Positions 267 to 17,888 of a stretch of 64,000 bases of DNA are shown here, piece by piece; position 1 is the first letter of the stretch; every line of letters begins with the position of its first letter. The position numbers and the translations under genes are program-made. The notes under the pieces are model-generated. The model searched no databases. It was not told where the DNA came from and saw only the letters and a program-made list of their open reading frames with translations. This DNA is from an uncultured Candidatus Saccharibacteria bacterium (GTDB lineage: Bacteria > Patescibacteriota > UBA1384 > JAMDBS01 > CAYSHH01): positions 6,473-70,472 of the forward strand of contig CAYSHH010000001.1 of the NCBI GenBank assembly GCA_964430945.1. The letters are read 5' to 3'.

Positions 267-1631
267 TTATACCCAACTAGGATGCATACTGTCATCTACA
301 TTATGAGCTTGTTGATCATCTTCATTTGATTCAGAAATTGTAGGAATTATTTGAATCTTCGGTTTATTTTTATCCATAGGAATATCGAGATTTATTCTTC
401 CGCTTTTCTTGAAAGTAAGATTGTTTTTCTTATATTGTTCATAAGATGTTTTGACTGCTGTAATTTTATAATTTCCAGGATTAGCAAGAAAATTGTATCT
501 ACCATTACTATCCGAGATCTGTGTTGAAACAAGTTTATTTTCTCTATTGAACAATCTTAGAATTACTCTATCGATAAATATATTTTCGTTTTTATCCTTT
601 GTTATACCGTAAGGTCGAGTTTTTCTTAATTTATAAAGTTCTAATATCCAGATTACAATATACAGACACGCAACAACCAAATTCAAAGTTGTTATATTCT
701 CATAAAGCGCCATGACAGCAAAAATTGTACCCAAAATTATGACTGGAATTCTAATTACATTAAAAAATTTAATAACTCCTGATAGTAAATTAATTCGACG
801 AGACAAAACTTCATGATCGGGATCTAAGGGTATCTTGTAAAGTAACTCTTGTTTTTGATTTACAACAAATGGAGTGCCATGATAGCCTTCAGTAGTAGAT
901 TTAGATGGAAAAGCATAATTAGATTTAATAACTTTTATATAATATTTCCCAGGACCAACAAATAACAAAAATCTACCTTCCTGGTCTGTAATTTGAGTAG
1001 AAAGAAGCTTATTGTATTCGTTTTCAAATATTTGTACTACTGCTCTTGATATTGGTGCATTTGCCTCTGCATCATAAACCATACCGTAACGCTCCTTCTT
1101 TTTACCAAAATCAAAAAGCGCCAAAAACCATGACCAGGCACTACCGAAAAGCGAGAGTATTGCTATACCACCAAAAAGTTGGGACAAAAGAAGTATTACT
1201 AAGGTAAGCGCTAAACCAACAGTCGCTAGTGGTATATTGAGTTCTTTAGCCAATTGACCCAAAGGTGTGTTGACACCCATCTTAATATCAAAGATAGTAC
1301 CCAAAATAGTAATATCTTCTCCAGTCGGTATCAAATTTTCAGCATCTATGATCGGCCCTAAGCTTATTGGTATTCCTCCGTCTGATTGATTGTTATTATC
1401 TCCTCCTCCGCCACTATTTGATACACTAGGCCAAAATACTATTTGACTCATGTCAGTAAGCATTCCGAATACTTGATAGTTCTCCGAACTACTACTTCCG
1501 CCACTATAATCAACTTGATCAGTAACGTTATATCTTTCCGAAGAAGCAGTATTGGCCATACAAAAAATAGGCAAAAACGTTGCCACTCCCAAAAGCACTA
1601 AAATATAAATTTGATTCACTCCTTTTTTCAT
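267..1631 (-). CDS. Polytopic membrane protein with N-terminal signal/TM, Gly/Ser-rich low-complexity segment and two carboxypeptidase-regulatory-like (CarboxypepD_reg) beta-sandwich repeats
   Basis: ORF track 454 aa. Hydrophobic N-terminus; SGGGGDNNNQSDGG tract; multiple TM helices; two repeats of type GRFLLFVGPGKYYIKV and NGRYNFLANPGNYKITAV. Only 13 nt downstream of the preceding gene. Confidence 0.55.
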   Translation of the reverse strand: MKKGVNQIYILVLLGVATFLPIFCMANTASSERYNVTDQVDYSGGSSSSENYQVFGMLTDMSQIVFWPSVSNSGGGGDNNNQSDGGIPISLGPIIDAENLIPTGEDITILGTIFDIKMGVNTPLGQLAKELNIPLATVGLALTLVILLLSQLFGGIAILSLFGSAWSWFLALFDFGKKKERYGMVYDAEANAPISRAVVQIFENEYNKLLSTQITDQEGRFLLFVGPGKYYIKVIKSNYAFPSKSTTEGYHGTPFVVNQKQELLYKIPLDPDHEVLSRRINLLSGVIKFFNVIRIPVIILGTIFAVMALYENITTLNLVVACLYIVIWILELYKLRKTRPYGITKDKNENIFIDRVILRLFNRENKLVSTQISDSNGRYNFLANPGNYKITAVKTSYEQYKKNNLTFKKSGRINLDIPMDKNKPKIQIIPTISESNEDDQQAHNVDDSMHPSWV

Positions 1632-4533: not shown

Positions 4534-5424
4534 TCAAAATAAACTATTTTGTTTTATCTGTTTATTGTATTTATTATTAATAATATTTGCATCAATTTGA
4601 ACAATATGAGAAATCCAAGGGTGCAAATCAATAACAAATTGGCTATTTGATGCTTCGACGACCAAGAAGCTCCCAATCATTGCAATTCCACTACCAGAAA
4701 TATAGTTATTTTTGACAATATCTGGGTCTCTCAAAACATTATTTTCTAAATAATAGTTGTCAAATACCTCAATTTTATTATTAATATCTAAATCAAATTC
4801 CTTCGATATCTCATTTTTCATGTCATTAAGTTTTTCTTTTGCTAATTTGGAATCATAATTATTGATAACCAATTGAATCTTTTTATTTCTACTTACGACT
4901 TCTGGCACAGATAAAAATTTGTGTGTATACTCTTCTATCTCTCTTGCGTCATAGGCATTGTCGCATGTCTTAATTATTATTGCACACCTAGCACCTTGTT
5001 CCAACAACCTCCGACGAATTCTTGGTGCATAAGCGATACCAACTTTGTTCACACCATATCCGAAATTAGCTAAATATACACTATGGGGTTTATTGTTTCT
5101 TTTCTGCTGTTTTAAAGATATATAATCAGCATTATAAAATGCTGGATTAAAACCCTGTTTTCTTTTGCACTTATCACACAATGTATATTTGGGGTGAAAA
5201 ATTTCACTTTTTTCAGGACAAGGATAAAAACCATCAATCGTCATGTCATATCCTCCAATACAATACTTTTTACTAGTTTTTCTAATAGTAAATTTTTGAT
5301 TTCTAATCGAAAAATGATATCTTTTCATATCTCCAAAAATCATATCCAAAACTAAAAATGGTCCTTCTTTTTTATGAAAACCATATCCAGAAAATAAATA
5401 TTTTTTCTCAAAATTAATATTCAT
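4534..5424 (-). CDS. Hypothetical protein with N-terminal Cys-rich zinc-ribbon-like segment and GIY-YIG-like motif
   Basis: 296 aa. CPEKSEIFHPKYTLCDKCKRK, followed by SVYLANFGYGVNKVGIAYAPRIRRRLLEQ, which resembles a GIY...YIG...R...E nuclease core. Assignment tentative. Confidence 0.4.
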   Translation of the reverse strand: MNINFEKKYLFSGYGFHKKEGPFLVLDMIFGDMKRYHFSIRNQKFTIRKTSKKYCIGGYDMTIDGFYPCPEKSEIFHPKYTLCDKCKRKQGFNPAFYNADYISLKQQKRNNKPHSVYLANFGYGVNKVGIAYAPRIRRRLLEQGARCAIIIKTCDNAYDAREIEEYTHKFLSVPEVVSRNKKIQLVINNYDSKLAKEKLNDMKNEISKEFDLDINNKIEVFDNYYLENNVLRDPDIVKNNYISGSGIAMIGSFLVVEASNSQFVIDLHPWISHIVQIDANIINNKYNKQIKQNSLF

Positions 5425-5502: not shown

Positions 5503-6099
5503 TCATAAAAGAATTTTTAACATTGGGATTAAATAATCCCAATTGTCAAACTTAAATACACAATCTTGCTTCAAATCGTAATTATATCCCCTCAGAAACA
5601 CTATCCTTCTCCATTTGGGAACATATTGACCAATAATATTTCTAGGAACATCATCTATAAGTAAATCACCCTCGAATAATGTCTTGTCGCTCATAAATAA
5701 AATATTATCCATTAGTTCTGGAAAATATTTATTAATCAGATATATTTTATCAGCTACATTTGTCTGTGATCTAGACATTGGATTTGTGACAAAGTATATC
5801 TTGGCACCTAATTTATAAAGGAGTTTTATAGTTTTAACTGCACCAGAAATAGGAGCCATTTCCCTTGCAAATCCATCCGCATAATATATATTGTCCAAAA
5901 TATCCCAAAAATATTTAGGAAAATTCTCCCTCAAAGGAAATTTTTTTATATCATACAACTGCATCCTTTTTAGAATATCAAACGTTTGATAAAAAATATC
6001 AAGCGTCAATCTATCAAAATCAAAAACAGTATTATCAAGATCTATTCCGATAATCATTCCTTTGATCATCGATAAAAAATTCTTATTCATATTACTCAC
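5503..6099 (-). CDS. HAD-superfamily hydrolase, 5'(3')-deoxyribonucleotidase-like
   Basis: 198 aa. N-terminal HAD motif I GIDLDNTVFDFD and a downstream LIDDVPRN motif. Confidence 0.5.
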   Translation of the reverse strand: MSNMNKNFLSMIKGMIIGIDLDNTVFDFDRLTLDIFYQTFDILKRMQLYDIKKFPLRENFPKYFWDILDNIYYADGFAREMAPISGAVKTIKLLYKLGAKIYFVTNPMSRSQTNVADKIYLINKYFPELMDNILFMSDKTLFEGDLLIDDVPRNIIGQYVPKWRRIVFLRGYNYDLKQDCVFKFDNWDYLIPMLKILL

Positions 6100-6627: not shown

Positions 6628-6769
6628 TACCTTTCACCTCCTTATAGAAAATTAATTCTCCTCCTTTCAAAAATTATTATTAAATTACAATTATAATCAT
6701 CCAAAACAAAACTACACTAAATTAAGCAAAAAATCAATCATTTTCAATTCATTTAAATTCAATCTTGTA

Positions 6770-6807
6770 TGACCAAACGACAAATACTCAGCAGAAGCTG
6801 AGTATTT
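6770..6807 (-). terminator. Hairpin/terminator-like element immediately 3' of tRNA-Ala
   Basis: Perfect 11-bp stem AAATACTCAGC-(4 nt loop)-GCTGAGTATTT at 6782..6807, followed on the minus strand by GTCGTTTGG. Confidence 0.4.
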
Positions 6808-6813
6808 CTCGTT

Positions 6814-6889
6814 TGGTGGACCCGACAGGACTCGAACCTGCCACCTCCACAGTGCAAATGTGGCGCTCTACCAGATGAGCTACGGGCCC
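6814..6889 (-). tRNA. tRNA-Ala (anticodon UGC), CCA encoded
   Basis: Reverse complement GGGCCCGTAGCTCATCTGGTAGAGCGCCACATTTGCACTGTGGAGGTGGCAGGTTCGAGTCCTGTCGGGTCCACCA. Cloverleaf with G3:U70 Ala identity pair and anticodon loop TT-TGC-AC. Confidence 0.9.
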
Positions 6890-6905
6890 TCGCATAATTA
6901 TTAAC

Positions 6906-6981
6906 TGGTGCGCATGGGAGGAATTGAACCTCCGACCTCGTCATTATCAGTGACGCGCTCTAACCCCTGAGCTACATGCGC
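6906..6981 (-). tRNA. tRNA-Ile (anticodon GAU), CCA encoded
   Basis: Reverse complement GCGCATGTAGCTCAGGGGTTAGAGCGCGTCACTGATAATGACGAGGTCGGAGGTTCAATTCCTCCCATGCGCACCA. Anticodon loop CT-GAT-AA. 16 nt upstream of tRNA-Ala, as in rrn spacers. Confidence 0.9.
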
Positions 6982-7034
6982 AAGAATTCATTTTAGTAAA
7001 ATAATAATAACAGAAGTACCTAAGAGTTTCAAGA

Positions 7035-9602
7035 TTAAATATTATTCTTGTCAATTTTTATTGTCTCACCCTTTTTTACTTCGCCCGATATCATTTCCTT
7101 GGCAACAAGATTCTCCACTTTTTCTTGAATCAGCCTTCTTAGTGGCCTTGCTCCAAACAGGGGATCATATCCCTCTTCTGCTAATTTGTTTATTGCCCCA
7201 TCAGAAATCTCAAGTCTAATATTTTTCTCAGCCAAATCGTCATGAAGACTTTTTATCATAAGTTTTACAATTTGAATAATTTCCTGGATATCAAGTGGTT
7301 TATAGCACACAACTTTATCAAATCTGTTGATAAATTCCGGTCGAAAAATGCCTTGCGAAAGTAAATAATCAACAATTACCTTTCCTAAAGCATTGGCTGA
7401 TATATTACCTTCCAAATACTGTCTGATCTTTTCACTTCCGGCATTTGAAGTACAAATAATTATTGTGCTCGTAAAATCAATAGTTTTTCCAGCAGCATCA
7501 GTAAGTCTTCCCTCGTCCAAAACTTGCAATAACAAATTTAAAATATTTGGGTGTGCTTTTTCGATCTCATCAAAAAGTATCAATGTATATGGATTATTTT
7601 TTACGCCTTGTGTAAGTCTGCCTGGAACGTATTCTCTTCCGCTTTTTGTTCCTATCAAACGATCAATAGTATTAACTTCCTGAAATTCACTCATATCAAA
7701 TCTGATCATATTCTTTTCTGAACCGTAGTACGCTTCGGCCAAAGCACGAGCAGTTTCAGTTTTTCCGACTCCAGTAGGACCAATAAATAAAAAACTTCCG
7801 ATTGGTCTTTTTTTACCAGCAATACCAGCTCTAGCTCTTCTCAAAGCATCAGCAACTGCATCGATTGCTTCTCTTTGACCAATAACCCTTTTATGTAAAA
7901 TATTTTCCAAATTAAGCAATCTCTCCTTCTCCTCTTCTTCAACTTTTCCAACAGGCATTTTTATTTTGCGACTCATAAAATCGTTGATATAATCTACATC
8001 TACAATCTTTTCATTACTTTTCTGAGCATTTATTCCAACTTCACTTAGGAGGTCAACCGCTTTTTGCGGAAATGACTCATCATGAATATATCTCGACGCA
8101 AGTTCAATCAACGTCTTTACTGCCTGATATTTAAAAACAATTCCATGTTTTATTTCTATAAAAGATATAAGATGTTCAATACTTGGGATAACTTCTTCTT
8201 TACTCATCTCCTTTACTTCAATTTTATTAAACAACGTTTCTAGGCTAGTATTCGCCTGCATTTTTCCTTTGAAACTATCATATGAAATACTAGCAATAAC
8301 ATTGATTTCACCAGATTCTAGATAAGGCACTAAAAACTCAGCAGCATTAACTGTTCCCATCTCTCCCAGATAATTTCCTATCAAATGATCTATTTCTTTT
8401 ACAAAAAGAATTATATTTCCGGCATAAGTTGTTTCATTGAATACTGCCAAAAACCTAGCTTCAAGCTCGCTTTTTGAATTTACACCAGCCAAGATTTTAT
8501 TAATATCCAATTGGAATAAGTGTTTGTAGTTCAAACTTGGATATGATTTCCCTCTTCCAATTTTTTGTGCAAGTGAATTTACTAAGGTTGTTTTTCCAAC
8601 ACCCGGATCCCCAATAAGAAGGATATTATTTCTACCTGATTTTGCTAAATCGTCTTCAATAGTTTTAATTATCTCTTGCCTTGTTTGAGACTGATATTCT
8701 AGTTTGGCATCTATAAGATATTGTGAGATATCAGTGCAATACATATTGAGATATGGTGTATATCCCGAAGCCCAATCTTGACCTATACCTGCAGGATAAT
8801 AATCCTTTTGCCAATAATATTTCTTCTTACTTTCCAACAATGTTCTTTCAGTCCAAGACAAAATATTTTTTAAATCATTTTCTTTTATATCAATGTCATT
8901 GAGTACATGCGAAAAAATCTGCAAATTCTTGTAAAGTGACATGACAAGATCTGAAAAATTGATATTTGTGTGATTGCTTGCCAATGCTTCCTTGTCACAC
9001 TGATTCAAGAAATTTTTATTTTGTATATCGAGCTGATCTTGAGCGTTTGCAGACAAACTTTTCATTTCATCTATTAGACTCTTTCTAGTCGCATCGTCAA
9101 CGATAAAACCAGATCTGATAGCAAATACTCTACCAATATCCGTTTTATCCAAAGCTACCAAGATAGCCATAAGATTAATTTCTCGAACATTGTTTTTTCT
9201 AGAAATATCTATAGCTTCACCTAAAATTTCAATATTTTTTTCATTAAAATAATCAAATAAATTCTCACTTGTTTTTTTTTGAATATTTAAATTGTTTTGT
9301 ATATGAGTACCAAATTTTACATATATGTTGATGAGAAAAATAAAAATTCCAAAACCCAATACAATATAAAGCAAAGATCTTATTTCTGGATTTACTAAAT
9401 TGCTATTCCTAGCCAAAATTAAATAAGCAAAGGATGATATCCCAGCAAAATATATTAGATAGCCAAAAAAACTAACCCAAAAACTTCCAAAAGTTTTTCG
9501 TAGTCTGTAAGCTTCATAAGATTTTGAACTCAAAAAATCTTTAATCATATTATTAACCCTCGATAAATCAGATAAATAATTAAAAATGGTAAACTCAACC
9601 AT
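7035..9602 (-). CDS. Membrane-anchored ClpA/ClpB/ClpC-family AAA+ ATPase (two AAA domains; atypical N-terminus with 2 TM helices; divergent D1)
   Basis: 855 aa. The N-terminal 100 aa contain two hydrophobic helices and no Clp_N domain. D1 Walker A is LLIGDPGVGKTTL, but the Walker B region reads ILFVKEIDHL instead of ILFIDEIH. D2 is canonical (VIGQREAI..., FLFIGPTGVGKTETARALA, LILFDEIEKAHPNI, sensor-2 GARPLRR). Confidence 0.8.
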   Translation of the reverse strand: MVEFTIFNYLSDLSRVNNMIKDFLSSKSYEAYRLRKTFGSFWVSFFGYLIYFAGISSFAYLILARNSNLVNPEIRSLLYIVLGFGIFIFLINIYVKFGTHIQNNLNIQKKTSENLFDYFNEKNIEILGEAIDISRKNNVREINLMAILVALDKTDIGRVFAIRSGFIVDDATRKSLIDEMKSLSANAQDQLDIQNKNFLNQCDKEALASNHTNINFSDLVMSLYKNLQIFSHVLNDIDIKENDLKNILSWTERTLLESKKKYYWQKDYYPAGIGQDWASGYTPYLNMYCTDISQYLIDAKLEYQSQTRQEIIKTIEDDLAKSGRNNILLIGDPGVGKTTLVNSLAQKIGRGKSYPSLNYKHLFQLDINKILAGVNSKSELEARFLAVFNETTYAGNIILFVKEIDHLIGNYLGEMGTVNAAEFLVPYLESGEINVIASISYDSFKGKMQANTSLETLFNKIEVKEMSKEEVIPSIEHLISFIEIKHGIVFKYQAVKTLIELASRYIHDESFPQKAVDLLSEVGINAQKSNEKIVDVDYINDFMSRKIKMPVGKVEEEEKERLLNLENILHKRVIGQREAIDAVADALRRARAGIAGKKRPIGSFLFIGPTGVGKTETARALAEAYYGSEKNMIRFDMSEFQEVNTIDRLIGTKSGREYVPGRLTQGVKNNPYTLILFDEIEKAHPNILNLLLQVLDEGRLTDAAGKTIDFTSTIIICTSNAGSEKIRQYLEGNISANALGKVIVDYLLSQGIFRPEFINRFDKVVCYKPLDIQEIIQIVKLMIKSLHDDLAEKNIRLEISDGAINKLAEEGYDPLFGARPLRRLIQEKVENLVAKEMISGEVKKGETIKIDKNNI

Positions 9603-9907
9603 GTAATAAAAATAATAATGAAAGCAATAATAGATAAAATTATTATTATATACCCAGCCATGATAGTAAGTGATCTTATCAAAACCCCCATAAATCTAGA
9701 TATTATATTTATTGCAAACATATTCAATCGTTCCTGAAGTGATGGATTCACTATCTTAGAAATATCTTTTTTCCAAGGCAGAAATAAAGTTCGCATCAAA
9801 AAATCAATAGAAAATTGATGATACAAATACGCAATTGTTTTTTGAAATATAAATATAATTTTTTTTGGCGCCTCAATAAATTGCCAACCAAAATAACTTC
9901 CTATCAT
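9545..9907 (-). CDS. Small polytopic membrane protein, hypothetical
   Basis: 120 aa, 3 predicted TM segments. Overlaps the start of the Clp-like ATPase by about 58 nt. First ORF downstream of the 16S trailer. Confidence 0.4.
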   Translation of the reverse strand: MIGSYFGWQFIEAPKKIIFIFQKTIAYLYHQFSIDFLMRTLFLPWKKDISKIVNPSLQERLNMFAINIISRFMGVLIRSLTIMAGYIIIILSIIAFIIIFITWLSLPFLIIYLIYRGLII

Positions 9908-9996
9908 AGCACTTAGTACACCTCCTTAATTATAATATGTCTACTTAATCATATCAGAACAATAAAAAAAATCCCATACAAGATGAGATTTTTTTA

Positions 9997-10023
9997 TATC
10001 AGTAACTTTGCGGTTGTAAGAAT
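9997..10023 (-). other. 16S rRNA trailer half of leader-trailer processing stem (pairs with 11684..11710)
   Basis: Plus 9997..10023 is the near-perfect reverse complement of plus 11684..11710: 27 bp with 1 G:U and 1 mismatch. The pair brackets the 16S gene like an RNase III processing stem. Confidence 0.6.
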
Positions 10024-10097
10024 GTTCAGAAATAAATTTCTGAAATCGATCTAGTAAGTTTCAAATATAAATATTCAATTCTTACTGATTCCTTTAG

Positions 10098-11596
<1,499 letters not shown>

Positions 11597-11935: not shown

Positions 11936-13423
11936 TTAACCTAAACTTTTTACAAACTCAATCAACGTTTTTACGCCAGCACCAGACCCACCTTTTTGGA
12001 TATAAGGCTTAGTAGGTCTAATCTGGATTGCACTACCGGCAATGTCCATATGCATCCACTTTATTTTCGGATCAACAAACTCTTCCAAAAACGCTGCGGC
12101 AGTTGATGCTCCTCCTTCACTACCTTTGCCAAGATTCTGTAAATCAGCAACACTGGATTTCATCTCTTCATGATGGACATTATCCATAGGAAGTTGCCAC
12201 AATTTTTCATAACTATTTTTTGATCTATCGATTGCCTTTTCAATCATTGACTGATTATTTCCAAACACGGCAGTATATTCAAAACCGAGTGCTATCATGC
12301 AAGCACCAGTTAATGTTGCCAAATCTATCATATAATTTGGCTTATATTGCTTACCGATATAAGAAAGTACGTCAGCCAAAACCAATCTTCCTTCAGCATC
12401 AGTATTAATAACCTCTACTGTTTTTCCATTATATGCTTTCCAAATATCACCTGGTTTTTGTGCTTTGTGTCCTGGCAAATTTTCGCAAGCACCTATCGCT
12501 CCAATAATGCGAATATTTTTAGGATTCATTTTAGAAATAACCTGAAATGCCCCCAGCACAGAAGCCGAACCAGCCATATCCATCTTCATTAACTCCATAT
12601 GCTCAGACGGTTTTATTGAAATACCCCCCGAATCAAAGGTCAAACCCTTCCCAACAAAAGCAATAGTTTTATTATATTTTCGAGGCCTATAGTCAAGTAC
12701 AATCATCCTTGCGTCTTCATCTGATCCACGAGCCACAGATGCAAAAAGCCCCATACCCATCTCAGTTATCTTACTTTCATCATATATTTTTACAGAGATA
12801 TTTTTACATTCTTTAGCGATATTTTTAGCTTCCTCGGCTAATTTTTTTGGATTGATAATATTGGATGGATGATTAGTTAAATCCCTGGCCAGATAGATTC
12901 CCTCTATTAAATTTTGAGCGCTCTTTACAATATCATTAAGCTTAGTTATATCCTTTTGGCCGTCATAAACGAAGTCTATTTGAGATAGTTTTGTATCTTT
13001 CTTCTTGGATTTATGATGATGAAATCTGTATAAGGATAAAAGTGTAATCTCAACAGTATCTCTTAAGAAATCTTCATTCTTATTGCCCACATAAATAGCA
13101 CAACTTCTGATACTCGTTTTGCCAACATAGATTATTGCTAAAGAAATTGCTTTATTATATCCTTCCATATTTAAATCTTTTTTCTTACCAAGCCCAACAA
13201 GTACAATCTTTTTAACTTTAAGTTTTTCATAACTATAAACTACATGCACTTCGCCTAATTCTGGTGTAAAATACCCATCTTTAATAATTTCCGAAATCCA
13301 TCCGCCAAGTTTTTTATCAACTACTTTAGCCTGTCCAGATAATTTTTCATCACTATAAATCGGCAATATCATTGCCTGAAAATTTAAATCAACTAATTGT
13401 TTATCACTAAATTTAATTTTCAT
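11936..13423 (-). CDS. pepA: Leucyl aminopeptidase (M17 family)
   Basis: 495 aa with M17 signature NTDAEGRLVLADVL and metal-binding residues in the C-terminal catalytic domain. Confidence 0.9.
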   Translation of the reverse strand: MKIKFSDKQLVDLNFQAMILPIYSDEKLSGQAKVVDKKLGGWISEIIKDGYFTPELGEVHVVYSYEKLKVKKIVLVGLGKKKDLNMEGYNKAISLAIIYVGKTSIRSCAIYVGNKNEDFLRDTVEITLLSLYRFHHHKSKKKDTKLSQIDFVYDGQKDITKLNDIVKSAQNLIEGIYLARDLTNHPSNIINPKKLAEEAKNIAKECKNISVKIYDESKITEMGMGLFASVARGSDEDARMIVLDYRPRKYNKTIAFVGKGLTFDSGGISIKPSEHMELMKMDMAGSASVLGAFQVISKMNPKNIRIIGAIGACENLPGHKAQKPGDIWKAYNGKTVEVINTDAEGRLVLADVLSYIGKQYKPNYMIDLATLTGACMIALGFEYTAVFGNNQSMIEKAIDRSKNSYEKLWQLPMDNVHHEEMKSSVADLQNLGKGSEGGASTAAAFLEEFVDPKIKWMHMDIAGSAIQIRPTKPYIQKGGSGAGVKTLIEFVKSLG

Positions 13424-13440: not shown

Positions 13441-14043
13441 TTATTTCTTTCTAACCACTTCATCGATAATACCGTATTTTTTAGCTTCATCCGCGCGCAT
13501 GAAAAAATCTCTGTCGGTATCTTTTTCAATTTGAGATATTTTTTGTCCAGTATGCTCAGCAAGAATTTTATTTACTTGGTCTTTTGTCTTTAAAACTTCT
13601 TCTGCCTGAATCTTGATATCAGTAGCTTGCCCCTCAAATCCACCCATTACTTGATGGATTAAAATCTTTGAGTTAGGTAGCGCATAGCGCTTGCCTTTTG
13701 CACCACCCGCCAAAAGAAAGGCTCCCATACTAGCTGCCATACCCACACATATAGTTGCTACATCAGGTTTTACATATTTCATCGTATCGTATATCGCAAG
13801 CCCGGAAGTAACAGAACCACCTGGTGAATTTATATAAATTTCAATATCTTTCTTTGAATCATCAGCTTCCAAAAATAAAAGCTGAGCAATAATGATGTTT
13901 GCCATATGATCATCGATCTGACCACCAACGAATATTATTCTATCTCTAAGTAGTCGAGAATATATATCATATGCCCTCTCCCCCATCTCAGATTTTTCAA
14001 TTACTGTGGGTATAAGCACCTGGTTTTTTATTTCATTATTCAT
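13441..14043 (-). CDS. clpP: ATP-dependent Clp protease proteolytic subunit
   Basis: ClpP core motifs [60 protein letters not shown]. Start placed at the internal Met ([14 protein letters not shown]...), because the ORF-track 5' extension to 14118 runs over a terminator hairpin. Confidence 0.85.
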
Positions 14044-14084
14044 AAGTACATATAAAATACCAACTTCACACCTTAAAATCAAGT

Positions 14085-14108
14085 AAAAAACCCCTCTTGC
14101 GAAGGGGC
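14085..14108 (-). terminator. Rho-independent terminator after HD-domain gene
   Basis: Minus strand CCCCT-tcgcaag-AGGGG followed by TTTTTT, between the HD gene stop (14115) and the clpP start. Confidence 0.5.
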
Positions 14109-14114
14109 TTGTAC

Positions 14115-15482
14115 TCATATTCTTAAATAATAATATATTGGCTGTTCAATTACAGCCTCGTTATTCCGTATGAATTCAACAAAATGATGTTTTGTTTCAC
14201 TGATCTCCAATATCAAACCATCATTTTCAATAAATAATGAAAGACCAGAATGAAATTTGATTTTTTGTTCATTGATCAGCTTTAATTTCTTATCCTCCAG
14301 TTCATGCTTGCTATTGATCATTTTTTCAAAAATTATCATCTCTATGTACCCCATACTAAGATTATCGATAAGACAATTAAATTCCTGTAATTCCTTTTTA
14401 TCCTTTTTCCTCACCCTCGAGCTAATCAATCTCAATATCTCGCACTCTGTTTTTCTGACCAATTCTGTTTTAGTAACATATTCCATAAACCTTTTAAACC
14501 GATAAGCTATATATATTTCTACACTCCTTCCGAGAGGGTTAAAGTAGAAATATCTTGCCATTAAAGAACGTATCAGTAAAAACCAGTACACCTCTCTATT
14601 ATTTTTACAAATTAATTTACCATTACCATCAAAATAAAAATTTAGATAACAGTCAGCAAAATTACAATCCTTAAATCTCAACTCCGGCAACTCAAACTCA
14701 TACAGACTTTCAGTTTCTGGACGTACCCGGCTAAAATCAAGAGCTGTATAACTAAGCCGGTCAACAACTTTACTAAAAAAATAGTATAGTCGTGAGAGTT
14801 CAGGTGAGACTTCATTAAATTTTCTCTCAAATAATGCCAACACTTTTTCAAGATCTATGCCATATTTAATACAAAAATTTTTAACAATATTTTGGTCAAG
14901 ACCAGAGATGTATAATCGAAGATTTTTTTCCTCATCATAATCTGCGTAATAAAAATACTTCATCATATCTCCAAAAGCAGAAGTCGCTGCATCATGCAGA
15001 AGTGCCATTAATATTCCAAAATTTATTATTTCCTCAGAATAATGCCCCTGTTTTCTCATCCATATTTCCAACATGACTGCCGAAGTTATAGTATGATAAA
15101 ACCGACTATGAGTTGGGCATCCGACAATCATTCTTTCATCCATATCCGATTTTGGATTGTAATATGGTAAATGAGTGAATTGCCTTATTTCGTGCAATCG
15201 ATCGAGCCCAAAAACTCCAATCGTACAATTATATATATCACCCTTAATCAATATACTCTTTCCATTTATCCCAGAAAAATTACTAAACGGAATATGCACA
15301 AATATTGGATCTTCATAATAGTGTCGAGCCCCAATATTACCGCACATTTGATCCACCAAAACCAAATTGGGACCCAAAAGACCTTTCTCGAAATCAAAAA
15401 TACCGTCCTTAATCTCTTCTGTCTCAACCCAAGTTTGATTTTTAAGTGTATATTGAAAATTTTTAAAAATTTTAAAAGACAT
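14115..15482 (-). CDS. HD-domain phosphohydrolase-like protein (large, uncharacterised)
   Basis: 455 aa. His...HD motif ([17 protein letters not shown]...[12 protein letters not shown]). Own promoter and strong SD (AGGAGG). Confidence 0.6.
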
Positions 15483-16706: not shown

Positions 16707-17888
16707 CTACTTAGTAGCGATCTCAATAAGCTTATCGAGAGTCTTTTTTACTGCTTTTTGCTGCAACTCATGATTTTTCTTCATATCAGTTCCAAGTTTT
16801 TTGGGATCAAAGTGCCCCATGTCTTTCGAAATCTCGCTAAGAGCTAATGATATTTTTACACCTTTTTCGGCATTAGGCTTGATATCATCTCTCAATTGAA
16901 CCAAAGTTTTACCCATATTCTCTAAATATTTTCCAAATGCTGGGCCAGTTTGTTGTTTTATAGTATCGATTCTTCGATCAATTTCCTGCTCAATTAAAGC
17001 TTCAGAAATATCTATTTCAACATTTTTAAGCACCTCATCAAGCACTTTTGATTCAAGTATTTGTCTATCTTTTTGTTCCTTTTCTGCGACTATACTTTTC
17101 GCGATAGCATCCTTCAATGCCTTCATTCCTTTGTGACCGAATTTTTTGGCAAATTCTTGATCTTCTTTAGGAAGTTTTACATGCCATACTTCATCAATCA
17201 CTACGTCAAAATTTACATCATCTTTTTGTATCTTCATTTTAAAATTAAGATTGTCACCTTTTTTGGTATCAATAAGTTTCTCTTCAAACTTAGGCATAAG
17301 CACACCCTCACCTAAGATAAACGGATAATGCTTCGAAGTATATTTATCTATCTGCACACCTTTTACCTTACCAATAAAGCTAACCTCCATACGATCACCC
17401 TTTTTCGCCTTATCTGATGTGATAGAATATTCTGCACCTTGTTGTTTTAAGCGATCGATAACCTTACCAACTTCACTGTCAGTAGCTTCAATTTTTGCTT
17501 TATCGTGCTTTGCTTTTATTTTTTTATAATTACCTAACTTAATTTCTGGTAAAAGATCTACTTCTGCTTCAAAACTAAATGGCTTATTTTCATCGAATGT
17601 AATGACATTCACTTTTGGGCTTCCTACCGGCACAAGCTTTTTCTCATGAACAACCCTAGAATAAATCTGAGGCAATGCGATATTCAATGCTTCAGAATTG
17701 TATTTTCCACGACCAATAGTCTCAATAGTAAGCATACGAGGCGCCTTACCTGGTCTAAAACCTTTGATGTCTACTGTCAATGCAAGTTTAGTATAGGCTT
17801 CGTCAAAATATCGCTTCATATTTACTACATCTTCAGTAATTGTAAGTTTAACTTTTGATTTGGGTAATTTTTCTATTTTAATATCCAT
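16707..17888 (-). CDS. tig: Trigger factor (ribosome-associated chaperone / PPIase)
   Basis: 393 aa. N-terminal ribosome-binding domain (MDIKIEKLPKSKVKLTITEDVVN..GFRPGKAP) and FKBP-like middle domain. Confidence 0.9.
   Translation of the reverse strand: MDIKIEKLPKSKVKLTITEDVVNMKRYFDEAYTKLALTVDIKGFRPGKAPRMLTIETIGRGKYNSEALNIALPQIYSRVVHEKKLVPVGSPKVNVITFDENKPFSFEAEVDLLPEIKLGNYKKIKAKHDKAKIEATDSEVGKVIDRLKQQGAEYSITSDKAKKGDRMEVSFIGKVKGVQIDKYTSKHYPFILGEGVLMPKFEEKLIDTKKGDNLNFKMKIQKDDVNFDVVIDEVWHVKLPKEDQEFAKKFGHKGMKALKDAIAKSIVAEKEQKDRQILESKVLDEVLKNVEIDISEALIEQEIDRRIDTIKQQTGPAFGKYLENMGKTLVQLRDDIKPNAEKGVKISLALSEISKDMGHFDPKKLGTDMKKNHELQQKAVKKTLDKLIEIATK

Follow-up and report, generated by a model that had tools for sequence, protein, structure and literature searches.

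The ATPase gene described here lies on the reverse strand of the window (the whole 64-kb stretch of DNA that was analyzed), and its placement between the 16S rRNA gene and the genes for tRNA-Ile and tRNA-Ala, proposed in an earlier note on this DNA, is borne out by the 16S and tRNA coordinates (Table 1). Upstream of it, clpP (13441-14118) is found 3.9 kb away on the same strand, with pepA and the 16S gene in between. As the earlier note had pointed out, clpP is not followed by clpX; the gene for an M17 aminopeptidase (pepA) is there instead. Neither clpX nor a second Clp-type ATPase besides that of the module was found anywhere in the 64 kb, and no type VI secretion families were found among the neighboring genes examined. 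The order tig-...-clpP-pepA-16S-small gene-ATPase is common to two relatives' loci (L002 and L003). The shorter order 16S-small gene-ATPase (followed by tRNA-Ile) is shared by the window, L001, and L002 with WS2, with Berkelbacteria, and with two bins, one from Saccharibacteria and the other from elsewhere in Patescibacteria; it is nevertheless rare, being present in only 3 to 4 of the 63 testable GTDB loci. The sequence downstream of the 16S gene folds into an A/U-rich hairpin that has a U8 tail, and a strict scan of positions 6700-10200 called no terminator after that gene. Ahead of the small gene is a promoter-like site, but it is not above chance, as such sites are not enriched in the scanned region (21 versus 15.6 ± 4.1 in shuffles). 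The hairpin with its U8 tail and the promoter-like site make a separate transcription of the module possible.

Table 1. Features of the two-gene module and its flanking RNA genes, in window coordinates
Feature	Position	Strand	Basis or remark
16S rRNA gene	10098..11595	-	Rfam SSU_rRNA_bacteria, 1464.5 bits, full length; directly 5' of module; context
Small membrane protein, 120 aa	9545..9907	-	ORF; conserved gene of the probable partner of the ATPase
ATPase, longer reading, 855 aa, start 9602	7035-9602	-	ORF
Class-I Clp/Hsp100 ATPase with membrane anchor, 837-aa form beginning at M19 (most likely start)	7035..9548	-	
N-terminal TM helical hairpin, residues 23-80 (837-aa form)	9309..9482	-	Hydropathy, AF2, relatives
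Divergent Clp_N-like double-repeat domain, residues ~97-240	8829..9260	-	Profile comparison
Family-specific linker motif GIGQDWASGYTP between N-domain and D1	8754..8789	-	Alignment
D1 AAA+ module, catalytically degenerate	7959..8696	-	
D1 Walker A GDPGVGKTT, intact	8586-8612	-	
D1 pore loop NSK where KYR expected	8472-8480	-	
D1 Walker B ILFVKE	8394-8411	-	Aligned to ILFIDE
D1 TL where Arg-finger pair RR expected	8232-8237	-	
D2 AAA+ module (AAA_2), canonical	7314..7808	-	
D2 Walker A GPTGVGKTE	7755-7781	-	
D2 pore loop SGREYVPGRLT	7611-7643	-	
D2 Walker B LILFDEIE	7560-7583	-	
D2 small domain (ClpB_D2-small)	7053..7295	-	
D2 sensor 2 GARPLRR	7134-7154	-	
tRNA-Ile(GAT)	6906-6981	-	Directly 3' of ATPase gene; context
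tRNA-Ala(TGC)	6814-6889	-	After tRNA-Ile, 3' side of ATPase gene; context
tRNA-Ile and tRNA-Ala pair	6814..6981	-	

The 855-aa ORF reported previously exists, but translation most likely begins at M19 (nt 9548), which gives a protein of 837 aa, in agreement with the NCBI version of the protein and with the N-termini of the relatives. The previously noted overlap of the start with the upstream 120-aa gene is therefore real but small: with M19, it is a 4-nt ATGA shared with the stop of that gene and not one of 58 nt. The Pfam search that had been set beforehand found AAA, AAA_2 (4.3e-52), and ClpB_D2-small (1.6e-26) in the ATPase, as well as AAA_lid_9, and the protein thus has the class-I double-ring layout of AAA followed by AAA_2 and a C-terminal D2-small domain. 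Its closest sequence relatives in the PDB are ClpB, ClpC, and ClpA (top match ClpB 1qvr, 1.2e-128). The AF2 model (pLDDT 85.4, pTM 0.76) resembles substrate-bound ClpB, ClpC, and ClpA protomers, and the best Foldseek matches were ClpC, ClpB, ClpC1, and ClpA. However, the protein scored below the cut-offs of the equivalog models for ClpB (TIGR03346, 529.1 bits against 1232.1, the highest NCBIfam score), ClpA (TIGR02639, 495.8 against 993.15), and ClpV/TssH (TIGR03345, 403.3 against 884.95). The ATPase is a real, uncharacterized kind of ClpB/ClpC-like protein-remodeling ATPase that is widespread in the ultrasmall Patescibacteria.

The N-terminus carries two hydrophobic stretches whose mean Kyte-Doolittle values over 19-mers reach 1.76 and 2.51, and for which AF2 gives helices 23-48 and 54-80 (837-aa numbering) with high confidence. 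Such stretches are present in 36 of 37 relatives, in agreement with the earlier proposal of two TM helices; membrane topology was judged by hydropathy, charge distribution, and AF2 only. The accompanying claim that Clp_N is absent proved to be wrong. No Pfam Clp_N match was obtained in the N-terminal 283 aa, even at E ≤ 10, and only profile methods reveal the domain, which is a divergent double repeat C-terminal to the hairpin. The family profile of this region aligned with the canonical Clp_N profile over 132 columns, covering both repeats, with an hhalign probability of 95.6% (E 1.1e-8), compared with 0.4% or less for reversed and shuffled decoys. In a PDB profile search at E ≤ 10, nearly all of the matches were N-domains of Clp/Hsp100 proteins or Clp chains matched at the N-domain, the best being the HSP101 N-domain (4iod_B, E 5.6e-5). 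An alternative start that restores a standard Clp_N was rejected, as the Clp_N-like domain is located after the hairpin and the supported start, M19, is not upstream. The linker that follows has the family pattern G-h-G-x-D-W-x-x-G-[YF]-T-P.

In D1, the Walker A motif is kept and the Walker B motif is abnormal, as had been noticed before; aligned to ILFIDE, the latter reads ILFVKE, with Lys in the place of Asp and with Glu retained. The degeneracy of D1 exceeds what was seen then, since both arginine fingers and the pore-loop tyrosine are also missing, and it is found in the window protein and in 36 relatives. Among 119 GTDB species loci, the Walker B pair was DD in 61, DE in 22, and DN in 16, and none had the RR fingers or the D1 pore tyrosine. 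The two active rings with pore-loop tyrosines that would mark a ClpB are thus not present, D1 having KE, TL for RR, and NSK for KYR. The lid of D1 lacks the M-domain: ClpB residues ~400-507 were unmatched in the alignment with the ATPase, whereas ClpA aligned as one uninterrupted stretch because ClpA and the window ATPase are both without a long M-domain, and the AF2 model contains no long coiled coil. D1 probably still binds nucleotide but is unable to hydrolyze it efficiently. The original description, a ClpB/ClpC-like AAA+ ATPase that is anchored in the membrane and whose first ATPase domain is degenerate, is correct.

The second module is canonical, as had been stated, with Walker A, Walker B, sensor 1 (Asn), the Arg finger, and sensor 2 all present. 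D2 is also canonical in all relatives examined, and its Walker B pair is DE in 101 of the 101 loci covering the region. The D2 pore loop is without an aromatic residue in 97 of the 103 members of the family that were sampled, most of them Saccharibacteria, while the clade of the window retains Y/F-hydrophobic-P-G, which is Y-V-P-G in the window protein. This aromatic-hydrophobic pair makes threading plausible in the window's clade. As the aromatic residue is missing from D2 in most members and from D1 in all, classical tyrosine-mediated threading may not have been how the ancestor of the family worked. At the D2 site of the LGF of ClpC, the window protein has a ClpB-like length, no insertion, and no [LIV]-G-[FL] tripeptide for docking to ClpP; the sole [ILVM]G[FLM] of the protein (LGF) falls within TM2.

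The small protein has no family in Pfam or NCBIfam, and its own family comprises 1,492 representative clusters (50% identity) at E ≤ 1e-3, which are without annotation. Its N-terminal helices bear a conserved FS...L....F.PW[KR][KR], and a hydrophobic stretch of ~49 residues occupies the C-terminus. AF2 predicts an all-helical fold (pLDDT 88.1), for which no match with E < 4 was found in the PDB. The protein is conserved at the loci of five relatives with W8, F32, S33, P44, G74, W103, and P107 invariant. The homologous gene is directly upstream of the ATPase gene in the window, L001, L002, and L008; it is 78 nt upstream in L005, and in L006 a 70-aa GIY-YIG gene lies in between. We also searched GTDB species genomes with a degenerate back-translated DNA pattern of the GxGxDWxxG[YF]TP motif and retrieved 120 loci, the great majority of which are labeled as Saccharibacteria or other Patescibacteria; in 119 of them, the encoded protein fits the ATPase profile of the family. 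The small gene was directly upstream in all 93 testable loci, in 90 of them adjacent on the same strand, in 1 overlapping, and in 2 in the reading frame of the ATPase. Further fusions of the small protein with the ATPase are P0336, P0353, P0374, and P0309, and the fusions do not all have the same number of hydrophobic helices separating the two parts. The two genes form a conserved module, found mainly in Patescibacteria (CPR), and the small protein is probably the partner of the ATPase. The window has the TM hairpin, the linker motif, the degenerate D1, and, directly upstream, the homologous membrane protein of ~120-130 aa that characterize this module.

An apparent counterpart pair exists in the Saccharibacteria member Southlakia epibionticum, in which SEML1_0700 is an 860-aa AAA ATPase and SEML1_0701 is a 127-aa hypothetical protein upstream that overlaps its start (Wang et al. 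2023, PMC10633639, Table S1). The pair was matched by architecture and not by sequence comparison: the positions of AAA, AAA_lid_9, AAA_2, and ClpB_D2-small in SEML1_0700 match those in the window ATPase, and it has no Pfam Clp_N either. The Tn-seq calls for both genes are NE, NE, and GD, that is, dispensable with a late growth defect, and the normalized reads fall in parallel from 4124 to 2517 to 1638 for SEML1_0700 and from 258 to 157 to 51 for SEML1_0701 (PMC10633639). The phenotype is mild. Both genes appear only as rows of the supplementary tables, and the main text is silent on Clp and AAA proteins (PMC10633639). Southlakia also has ClpP and a canonical ClpC (SEML1_0512) with Clp_N and UVR domains. 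Adjacency, the natural fusions, and the parallel Tn-seq profiles give indirect support to a putative physical complex of the ATPase and the small protein in the membrane.

On these grounds, we give about even chances to a model in which a D2-driven hexamer, held at the membrane with its entry face to the bilayer, extracts or remodels membrane proteins together with the small protein as a subunit. The hexamer would be tethered to the cytoplasmic face of the membrane, with D1 serving for assembly and D2 as the sole motor. As the anchor is N-terminal, the substrate-entry face formed by the N-domain and D1 would be directed at the bilayer. Membrane-embedded or membrane-associated proteins could then be pulled out of the membrane, or apart at it, and released to the cytoplasm without the need for ClpP or DnaK. 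The small protein would be a stoichiometric membrane subunit that acts as an adaptor, anchor, or regulator. We infer the extraction mechanism from the topology and from the likeness to FtsH and Msp1. A role as a membrane quality-control factor, which the earlier note had also suggested, is plausible and would agree with the topology.

The absence of pore-loop tyrosines from D1 in all members and from D2 in most, together with the apparently obligate small membrane partner and the missing arginine fingers of D1, could also be explained by a non-threading remodeler or nucleotide-dependent switch, in which hydrolysis in D2 alters the conformation or assembly of a membrane complex without translocation through the pore, as has been proposed for torsins. 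We consider this fairly unlikely, since the window's clade keeps the Y/F-hydrophobic-P-G of its D2 pore loop, the predicted fold is like that of substrate-bound Hsp100 protomers, and an external activator is not required by a D2 that carries both an Arg finger and sensor 2 itself. A broader proposal, which we regard as unlikely, is that the module is a lineage-wide, Hsp100-derived membrane machine (a hexamer with six small subunits and up to 24 TM helices) that abandoned tyrosine threading in both rings in most lineages and serves a lineage-specific membrane process, such as the remodeling or turnover of envelope or surface complexes of episymbiosis, and not proteostasis in general; on this view, the clade of the window is a variant with a D2 pore tyrosine in an rRNA operon. 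Export has also been considered, with six hairpins and six partner subunits forming a conduit across which the AAA+ rings push proteins, as in HSP101 of the Plasmodium PTEX translocon or in Bcs1. Patescibacteria live as episymbionts and need to exchange material with their hosts (PMC10633639). In a 6:6 complex, the models would allow as many as 24 TM helices directly above the axial channel, and the N-domain profile happens to have its best PDB match in the N-domain of HSP101. However, in Hsp100 machines the substrate passes from the N-domain/D1 face toward D2. With the N face at the membrane, the expected direction is from the membrane to the cytoplasm, which is the opposite of export. A pore-forming partner is also not evident, the small protein has no fold match, and the Tn-seq phenotype is mild. 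A translocation motor is thus improbable.

The neighborhood suggests two other functions. The nearby clpP without a following clpX had led to the proposal that the ATPase is the unfoldase partner of ClpP in place of ClpX, and the conservation of the gene order in L002 and L003 speaks for it. This proposal was not supported and was rejected for lack of the docking loop. The module is also far from clpP in most other lineages that have it, and Southlakia has a canonical ClpC in addition to ClpP and to what appears to be its version of the module; we therefore consider such a partnership very unlikely. The position in the rRNA operon spacer, which recurs across several lineages, might point to a role in rRNA or ribosome biogenesis or to expression coupled to growth rate. 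This is equally hard to credit, given the rarity of the order among GTDB loci, the hairpin and promoter-like site (at chance level) between the 16S and small genes, and a membrane anchor that does not suggest a ribosomal substrate. PADLOC matched the ATPase to DolB (3.7e-35) and PDC-M37B (6.3e-32), which would point to an anti-phage defense ATPase of the Dodola or PDC-M37 type, but the matches are confined to residues ~435-711, a generic D2/AAA_2 stretch. The small protein fits no PADLOC model, so there is no DolA-like partner, and the module is widespread and not patchy, at a conserved housekeeping position. We rejected both systems because of the partial D2 matches and the unmatched partner, and a defense function is extremely unlikely.

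To our knowledge, the characterized bacterial class-I Clp/Hsp100 proteins (ClpA, B, C, E, L, V, G, and K) are all soluble, and we found no description of a membrane-anchored one in the open literature. Here the Hsp100 scaffold has acquired an FtsH-like anchor as well as a small membrane subunit that seems to be obligate, one of its rings is silent, and the substrate-gripping tyrosines have been lost in most lineages of the module. Patescibacteria, in which the module mainly occurs, are a very large radiation that is still poorly understood. Genetic tools now exist for Saccharibacteria, and the apparent counterpart pair stands uncommented in a published Tn-seq table. If the function is ordinary membrane-protein quality control, the interest is chiefly evolutionary.

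Compared with known systems, the window ATPase shares with ClpB/Hsp104 the Clp_N-type N-domain, the AAA and AAA_2 modules, ClpB_D2-small, and the lack of a ClpP-docking loop. However, it is without the coiled-coil M-domain that couples ClpB/Hsp104 to Hsp70, and it has a degenerate D1, is anchored by a TM hairpin, and comes with the gene of a small membrane partner that appears to be obligate. The overall fold and the Clp_N-type N-domain are also shared with ClpC and ClpA, the latter of which likewise has no long M-domain, whereas the ClpP-binding loop, the UVR and short M-domain of ClpC, and the active D1 motifs are missing, and the window ATPase is membrane-anchored.

FtsH is a hexameric AAA+ enzyme with an N-terminal TM tether, an entry face to the membrane, and small or accessory membrane partners. 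The likeness to FtsH, and by analogy to Msp1/ATAD1, is functional, coming from general knowledge and not from homology. FtsH consists of one AAA ring of another AAA+ clade fused to an M41 metalloprotease, while the window ATPase has two Clp-type rings, and no Peptidase_M41 or other protease domain was found in it with Pfam. Torsins, with LAP1/LULL1, are kin of the ClpB D2 clade, are membrane-associated, and need a small membrane-protein partner for activity. They have no pore-loop aromatic residue, as is the case in most ATPases of the module. However, torsins are single-ring, lumenal proteins without an Arg finger of their own, whereas the D2 of the window ATPase supplies an Arg finger itself, along with sensor 2, and a pore-loop tyrosine is kept in the window's clade. 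The apparent counterpart pair SEML1_0700/0701 has the same two-gene arrangement and belongs to the Saccharibacteria branch of the family.

The Clp/Hsp100-type AAA+ protein was described in the earlier note as an 855-aa product whose start is overlapped by the gene of a 120-aa membrane protein. The open reading frame and the overlap were both borne out, and the start is instead most likely M19 of this frame, which gives the 837 aa of an identical NCBI protein. The equivalent methionine is the start in relatives of 50-68% identity, where it opens the motif MIKD(F/L)L.SK.Y. With M19 as the start (residue numbers refer to the 837-aa form), the ATG of the ATPase gene (9548-9546) overlaps the TGA of the small gene (9547-9545) as ATGA, a stop/start overlap that typically accompanies translational coupling. 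Pfam recognizes AAA, AAA_lid_9, AAA_2 (4.3e-52), and ClpB_D2-small (1.6e-26) in the protein. Its top NCBIfam scores, for ClpB (529 bits), ClpA (496 bits), and ClpV (403 bits), are far under the respective curated cut-offs of 1232, 993, and 885. The nearest solved structures are those of ClpB, ClpC, and ClpA, and a confident AlphaFold2 model from 37 family sequences (pLDDT 85.4, pTM 0.76) matched protomers of ClpC, ClpB, ClpC1, and ClpA in Foldseek.

The protein begins with a hydrophobic hairpin. Residues 23-80 contain two hydrophobic helices (Kyte-Doolittle 19-mer means of 1.76 and 2.51), which coincide with helices 23-48 and 54-80 of the AlphaFold2 model, and Lys/Arg-rich segments lie on either side of them, which, given the positive-inside rule, suggests from the sequence an N-in/C-in topology. 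Hydrophobic stretches are found within the N-terminal ~90 residues of 36 of 37 relatives; the lone exception looks N-terminally truncated. Residues ~97-240 form eight helices in the AlphaFold2 model, and no match to Pfam Clp_N was obtained in the N-terminal region even at E <= 10. The protein had been said to lack this domain. However, the family profile aligned with the canonical Clp_N profile over 132 columns, including both repeats (hhalign probability 95.6%, E 1.1e-8; reversed and column-shuffled decoys, <= 0.4%). An HMM of the N-terminal region gave 24 matches in the PDB at E <= 10, nearly all of which were Clp/Hsp100 N-domains or Clp chains at that region, including Plasmodium HSP101 (4iod_B, 5.6e-5), S. 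aureus ClpC, ClpA (1k6k), B. subtilis ClpC (2y1q), and Hsp104. These profile matches indicate that the ATPase does possess a Clp_N domain, which has diverged and is located after the membrane anchor. The linker motif GIGQDWASGYTP occupies residues 254-265, with the family-wide pattern G-h-G-x-D-W-x-x-G-[YF]-T-P.

The two AAA+ rings differ in the state of their motifs. ATP hydrolysis by such rings requires the Glu of Walker B and Arg fingers acting in trans. In the first ring (D1), Walker A (GDPGVGKTT) is intact, the Walker B ILFIDE of ClpB has become ILFVKE, the pore loop reads NSK instead of KYR, and the arginine-finger pair is ETLF as against ERRF of ClpB. With this Walker B, the hairpin, and the ClpB/ClpC/ClpA relatives, the description as a membrane-anchored ClpB/ClpC-like protein with a degenerate D1 is largely right. 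It was also correctly recognized that the second ring (D2) conforms to the canonical pattern: it has both Walker motifs (DE in Walker B), the sensor 1 Asn, the Arg finger, and GARPLRR as sensor 2, and its pore loop SGREYVPG keeps the aromatic-hydrophobic pair. Among 119 GTDB loci, a sample biased toward Saccharibacteria and toward sequences matching the linker search motif, the D1 Walker B dipeptide was DD in 61, DE in 22, DN in 16, and another pair in 13 (region absent in 7), the D1 arginine-finger pair was never RR, and the D1 pore loop never had the central Tyr; the D2 Walker B was DE in all 101 loci covering the region, and just 6 of 103 family sequences had the D2 pore-loop aromatic. The Lys at the D1 Walker B Asp position is peculiar to the closest relatives of the window (KN or KD there), and [YF]-hydrophobic-P-G in D2 is an unusual retention by its clade.

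The M-domain, the element coupling ClpB to DnaK, is absent from the ATPase as judged from PDB alignments and from the AlphaFold2 model, which has no long coiled coil. ClpA aligns to the protein as one stretch, and T. thermophilus ClpB has ~107 residues (400-507) that remain unpaired. ClpP is docked through an [LIV]-G-[FL] loop. The earlier note had observed, correctly, that clpX does not follow clpP in the window (Table), and had considered the ATPase as a ClpP partner. This role failed at the key point: the LGF insertion of the ClpC references is absent at the D2 site, where the length is ClpB-like, and the sole [ILVM]G[FLM] of the whole protein lies inside TM2. A ClpP partnership is very unlikely on these grounds. 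A phmmer search with the ATPase against every window ORF of >=70 aa revealed no second Clp-type ATPase. The listed clpP ORF has 225 aa with a hydrophobic N-terminal extension; its true start is probably M26, giving ~200 aa like the clpP of the related locus L002.

Coordinates of features in the window and of in-frame fusions in two related loci
Feature	Sequence	Coordinates	Strand	Remark
Trigger factor (tig)	window	16707-17888	-	first in minus-strand order
Three ORFs without Pfam match	window		-	between trigger factor and clpP
455-aa ORF	window	14115-15482	-	one of the ORFs between trigger factor and clpP; no Pfam match; HD-like motif
clpP	window	13441-14118	-	
M17 leucyl aminopeptidase	window	11936-13423	-	takes the place of clpX after clpP
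16S rRNA gene	window	10098-11595	-	full length
Hairpin with U8 tail	window	~9962-10000	-	just after 16S 3' end
Promoter-like site	window	9929-9957	-	ahead of small gene
Small-protein ORF, 120 aa	window	9545-9907	-	
ATPase long ORF, 855 aa	window	7035-9602	-	
tRNA-Ile(GAT)	window	6906-6981	-	
tRNA-Ala(TGC)	window	6814-6889	-	
NT5C-type 5'-nucleotidase	window	5503-6099	-	downstream of tRNAs
DUF2797 protein	window	4534-5424	-	downstream of tRNAs
454-aa protein, CarboxypepD_reg/SdrD_B-like domains	window	267-1631	-	downstream of tRNAs
Small protein-ATPase fusion	L022	3279-5805	+	in frame
Small protein-ATPase fusion	L044	1866-4137	+	in frame

The family was traced by its database matches, about 40 of the best of which carry the N-terminal hydrophobic hairpin (the named ones are Patescibacteria), and by searching GTDB species-representative genomes with a degenerate DNA pattern of the linker motif, which gave at least 120 loci. 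Most by far bear the label of Saccharibacteria or another patescibacterial lineage (Berkelbacteria, Parcubacteria, Woesebacteria, and WS2), and 119 of the 120 listed encode a protein that the family ATPase profile recognizes. Four of the listed loci carry labels from outside the Patescibacteria. Two of these match the profile strongly, in a Gammaproteobacteria bin (L044, 727.5 bits) and a Nevskiaceae bin (L116, 938.9 bits), and are probably mis-binned contigs; the match in a Dormiibacterota bin (L041) is weak (209 bits), and a Gemmatimonadota bin (L058) has no ATPase match to the profile and seems to have been picked up by the pattern by chance.

The small gene accompanies the ATPase gene throughout. 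Where the upstream region is present (93 loci), a homologue of the small protein lies directly upstream on the same strand in 90; in the remaining three, the small gene overlaps in one and is in the ATPase reading frame in two (L022 and L044). Among six loci reached through individual homologues, the small gene sits directly upstream in the window, L001, L002, and L008; in L005 it lies 78 nt upstream, and in L006 a 70-aa GIY-YIG gene separates it from the ATPase gene. The small proteins of the individually fetched loci have 24-46% identity to that of the window, with W8, F32, S33, P44, G74, W103, and P107 invariant. The protein has no match in Pfam, NCBIfam, or PADLOC, its AlphaFold2 model is all-helical (pLDDT 88.1) with no significant match in a PDB fold search, and its family, which forms 1,492 representative clusters at 50% identity (E <= 1e-3), is named in the database only as "hypothetical protein". 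Among the best 150 representatives, four (P0336, P0353, P0374, and P0309) are fused to the N-terminus of a family ATPase. In P0336 and L044 the TM hairpin belonging to the ATPase itself is missing, and L044 is also without most of the Clp_N-like region; the L022, P0353, and P0309 fusions keep an extra hydrophobic helix, which makes their topology ambiguous. Because of the strict adjacency across deep lineages, the likely translational coupling, and the recurrent gene fusion, we infer that the two proteins probably act as one unit.

In the window, which is low in G+C (33.5%), the module interrupts an rRNA operon with its two protein-coding genes between the 16S rRNA gene and tRNA-Ile/tRNA-Ala (6814-11595, minus strand). 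No 23S or 5S rRNA gene was found in the 64 kb. The same-strand order 16S, small gene, ATPase recurs within the clade of the window (L001 and L002/L003, whose 16S identities to the window are 84-88%), in a WS2 bin (L025), a Patescibacteria bin (L075), a Berkelbacteria bin (L097), where tRNA-Ile comes directly next, and a single Saccharibacteria bin (L014); it was present in only 3-4 of the 63 GTDB loci with sufficient upstream sequence. In L001, ~5 kb with protein genes separates the tRNAs from the start of the downstream 23S rRNA gene. Unlinked rRNA genes are known to be frequent in the Patescibacteria radiation (bioRxiv 10.1101/705046). The 16S rRNA gene of L075 (816-3578) aligns to that of the window in four pieces over ~2.8 kb, which suggests internal insertions as described for this radiation. 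In the window, the 16S 3' end is followed by an A/U-rich hairpin of 13 bp and then by U8 (dG -11.1 kcal/mol, z -3.4), and the small gene is preceded by CTGATA-17-TATAAT. Promoter-like sites are no more frequent in the module region than in shuffled sequence, and the module may have this candidate promoter of its own. Several ORFs neighbouring the DUF2797, NT5C, and 454-aa genes are without a Pfam match.

Published genetics are available for Southlakia epibionticum (Wang et al. 2023, Cell; PMC10633639). Its SEML1_0700 is an 860-aa "AAA family ATPase" with AAA (276-381), AAA_lid_9 (415-471), AAA_2 (544-706), and ClpB_D2-small (713-792) and no Clp_N match, and SEML1_0701, on the same strand with a 22-nt overlap with the SEML1_0700 start, encodes a 127-aa hypothetical protein of the ECOD helical-hairpin class (PMC10633639). 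Since the Pfam coordinates of SEML1_0700 agree within ~5 residues with those of P0034, a Saccharibacteria-type family member, the pair is, judged from its architecture, taken as the likely counterpart of the module. In the Tn-seq data, both genes rated as non-essential in P0 and in P1 and as "growth defect" in P2, with normalised reads falling from 4124 to 2517 to 1638 for SEML1_0700 and from 258 to 157 to 51 for SEML1_0701 (PMC10633639). This genome also encodes a canonical ClpC (SEML1_0512, with Clp_N and UVR) and ClpP (SEML1_0493), both non-essential, and its gene table has no other "Clp" entry (PMC10633639). A 507-aa hypothetical protein (SEML1_0494) likewise lies between tig and clpP; its likeness to the 455-aa ORF of the window is one of position. 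In the open literature we found no description of a membrane-anchored Clp/Hsp100 protein or of this ATPase family.

How the machine might work can be modelled on the established Hsp100 mechanism, while the architecture, motif states, pairing, and distribution are direct observations. Hsp100 substrates enter at the N-domain/D1 face and leave at D2. With the anchor at the N-terminus, the entry face of the ATPase would be turned toward the membrane from the cytoplasm. D1 would serve as a nucleotide-binding assembly ring and D2 as the sole motor, the small protein would be a membrane subunit, and the machine would operate without DnaK and ClpP. The ATPase may instead work by a non-threading mechanism, an alternative that we retain mainly because most of the family has lost the pore-loop aromatics; the clade of the window is among the few that keep them in D2. 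The architectural and family description of the module is very probably correct, the extraction mechanism is tentative and somewhat short of an even chance, and the two taken together stand at about even.

The most economical reading is that the ATPase would extract or remodel proteins in or near the membrane in a manner comparable to FtsH or Msp1, which agrees with the putative role in membrane protein quality control raised earlier. The module represents a genuine and conserved variant of Clp/Hsp100, essentially without annotation and found mainly in Patescibacteria; the ATPase is membrane-anchored, comes with a small membrane protein, and appears to be driven by one ring and to be independent of ClpP and DnaK.
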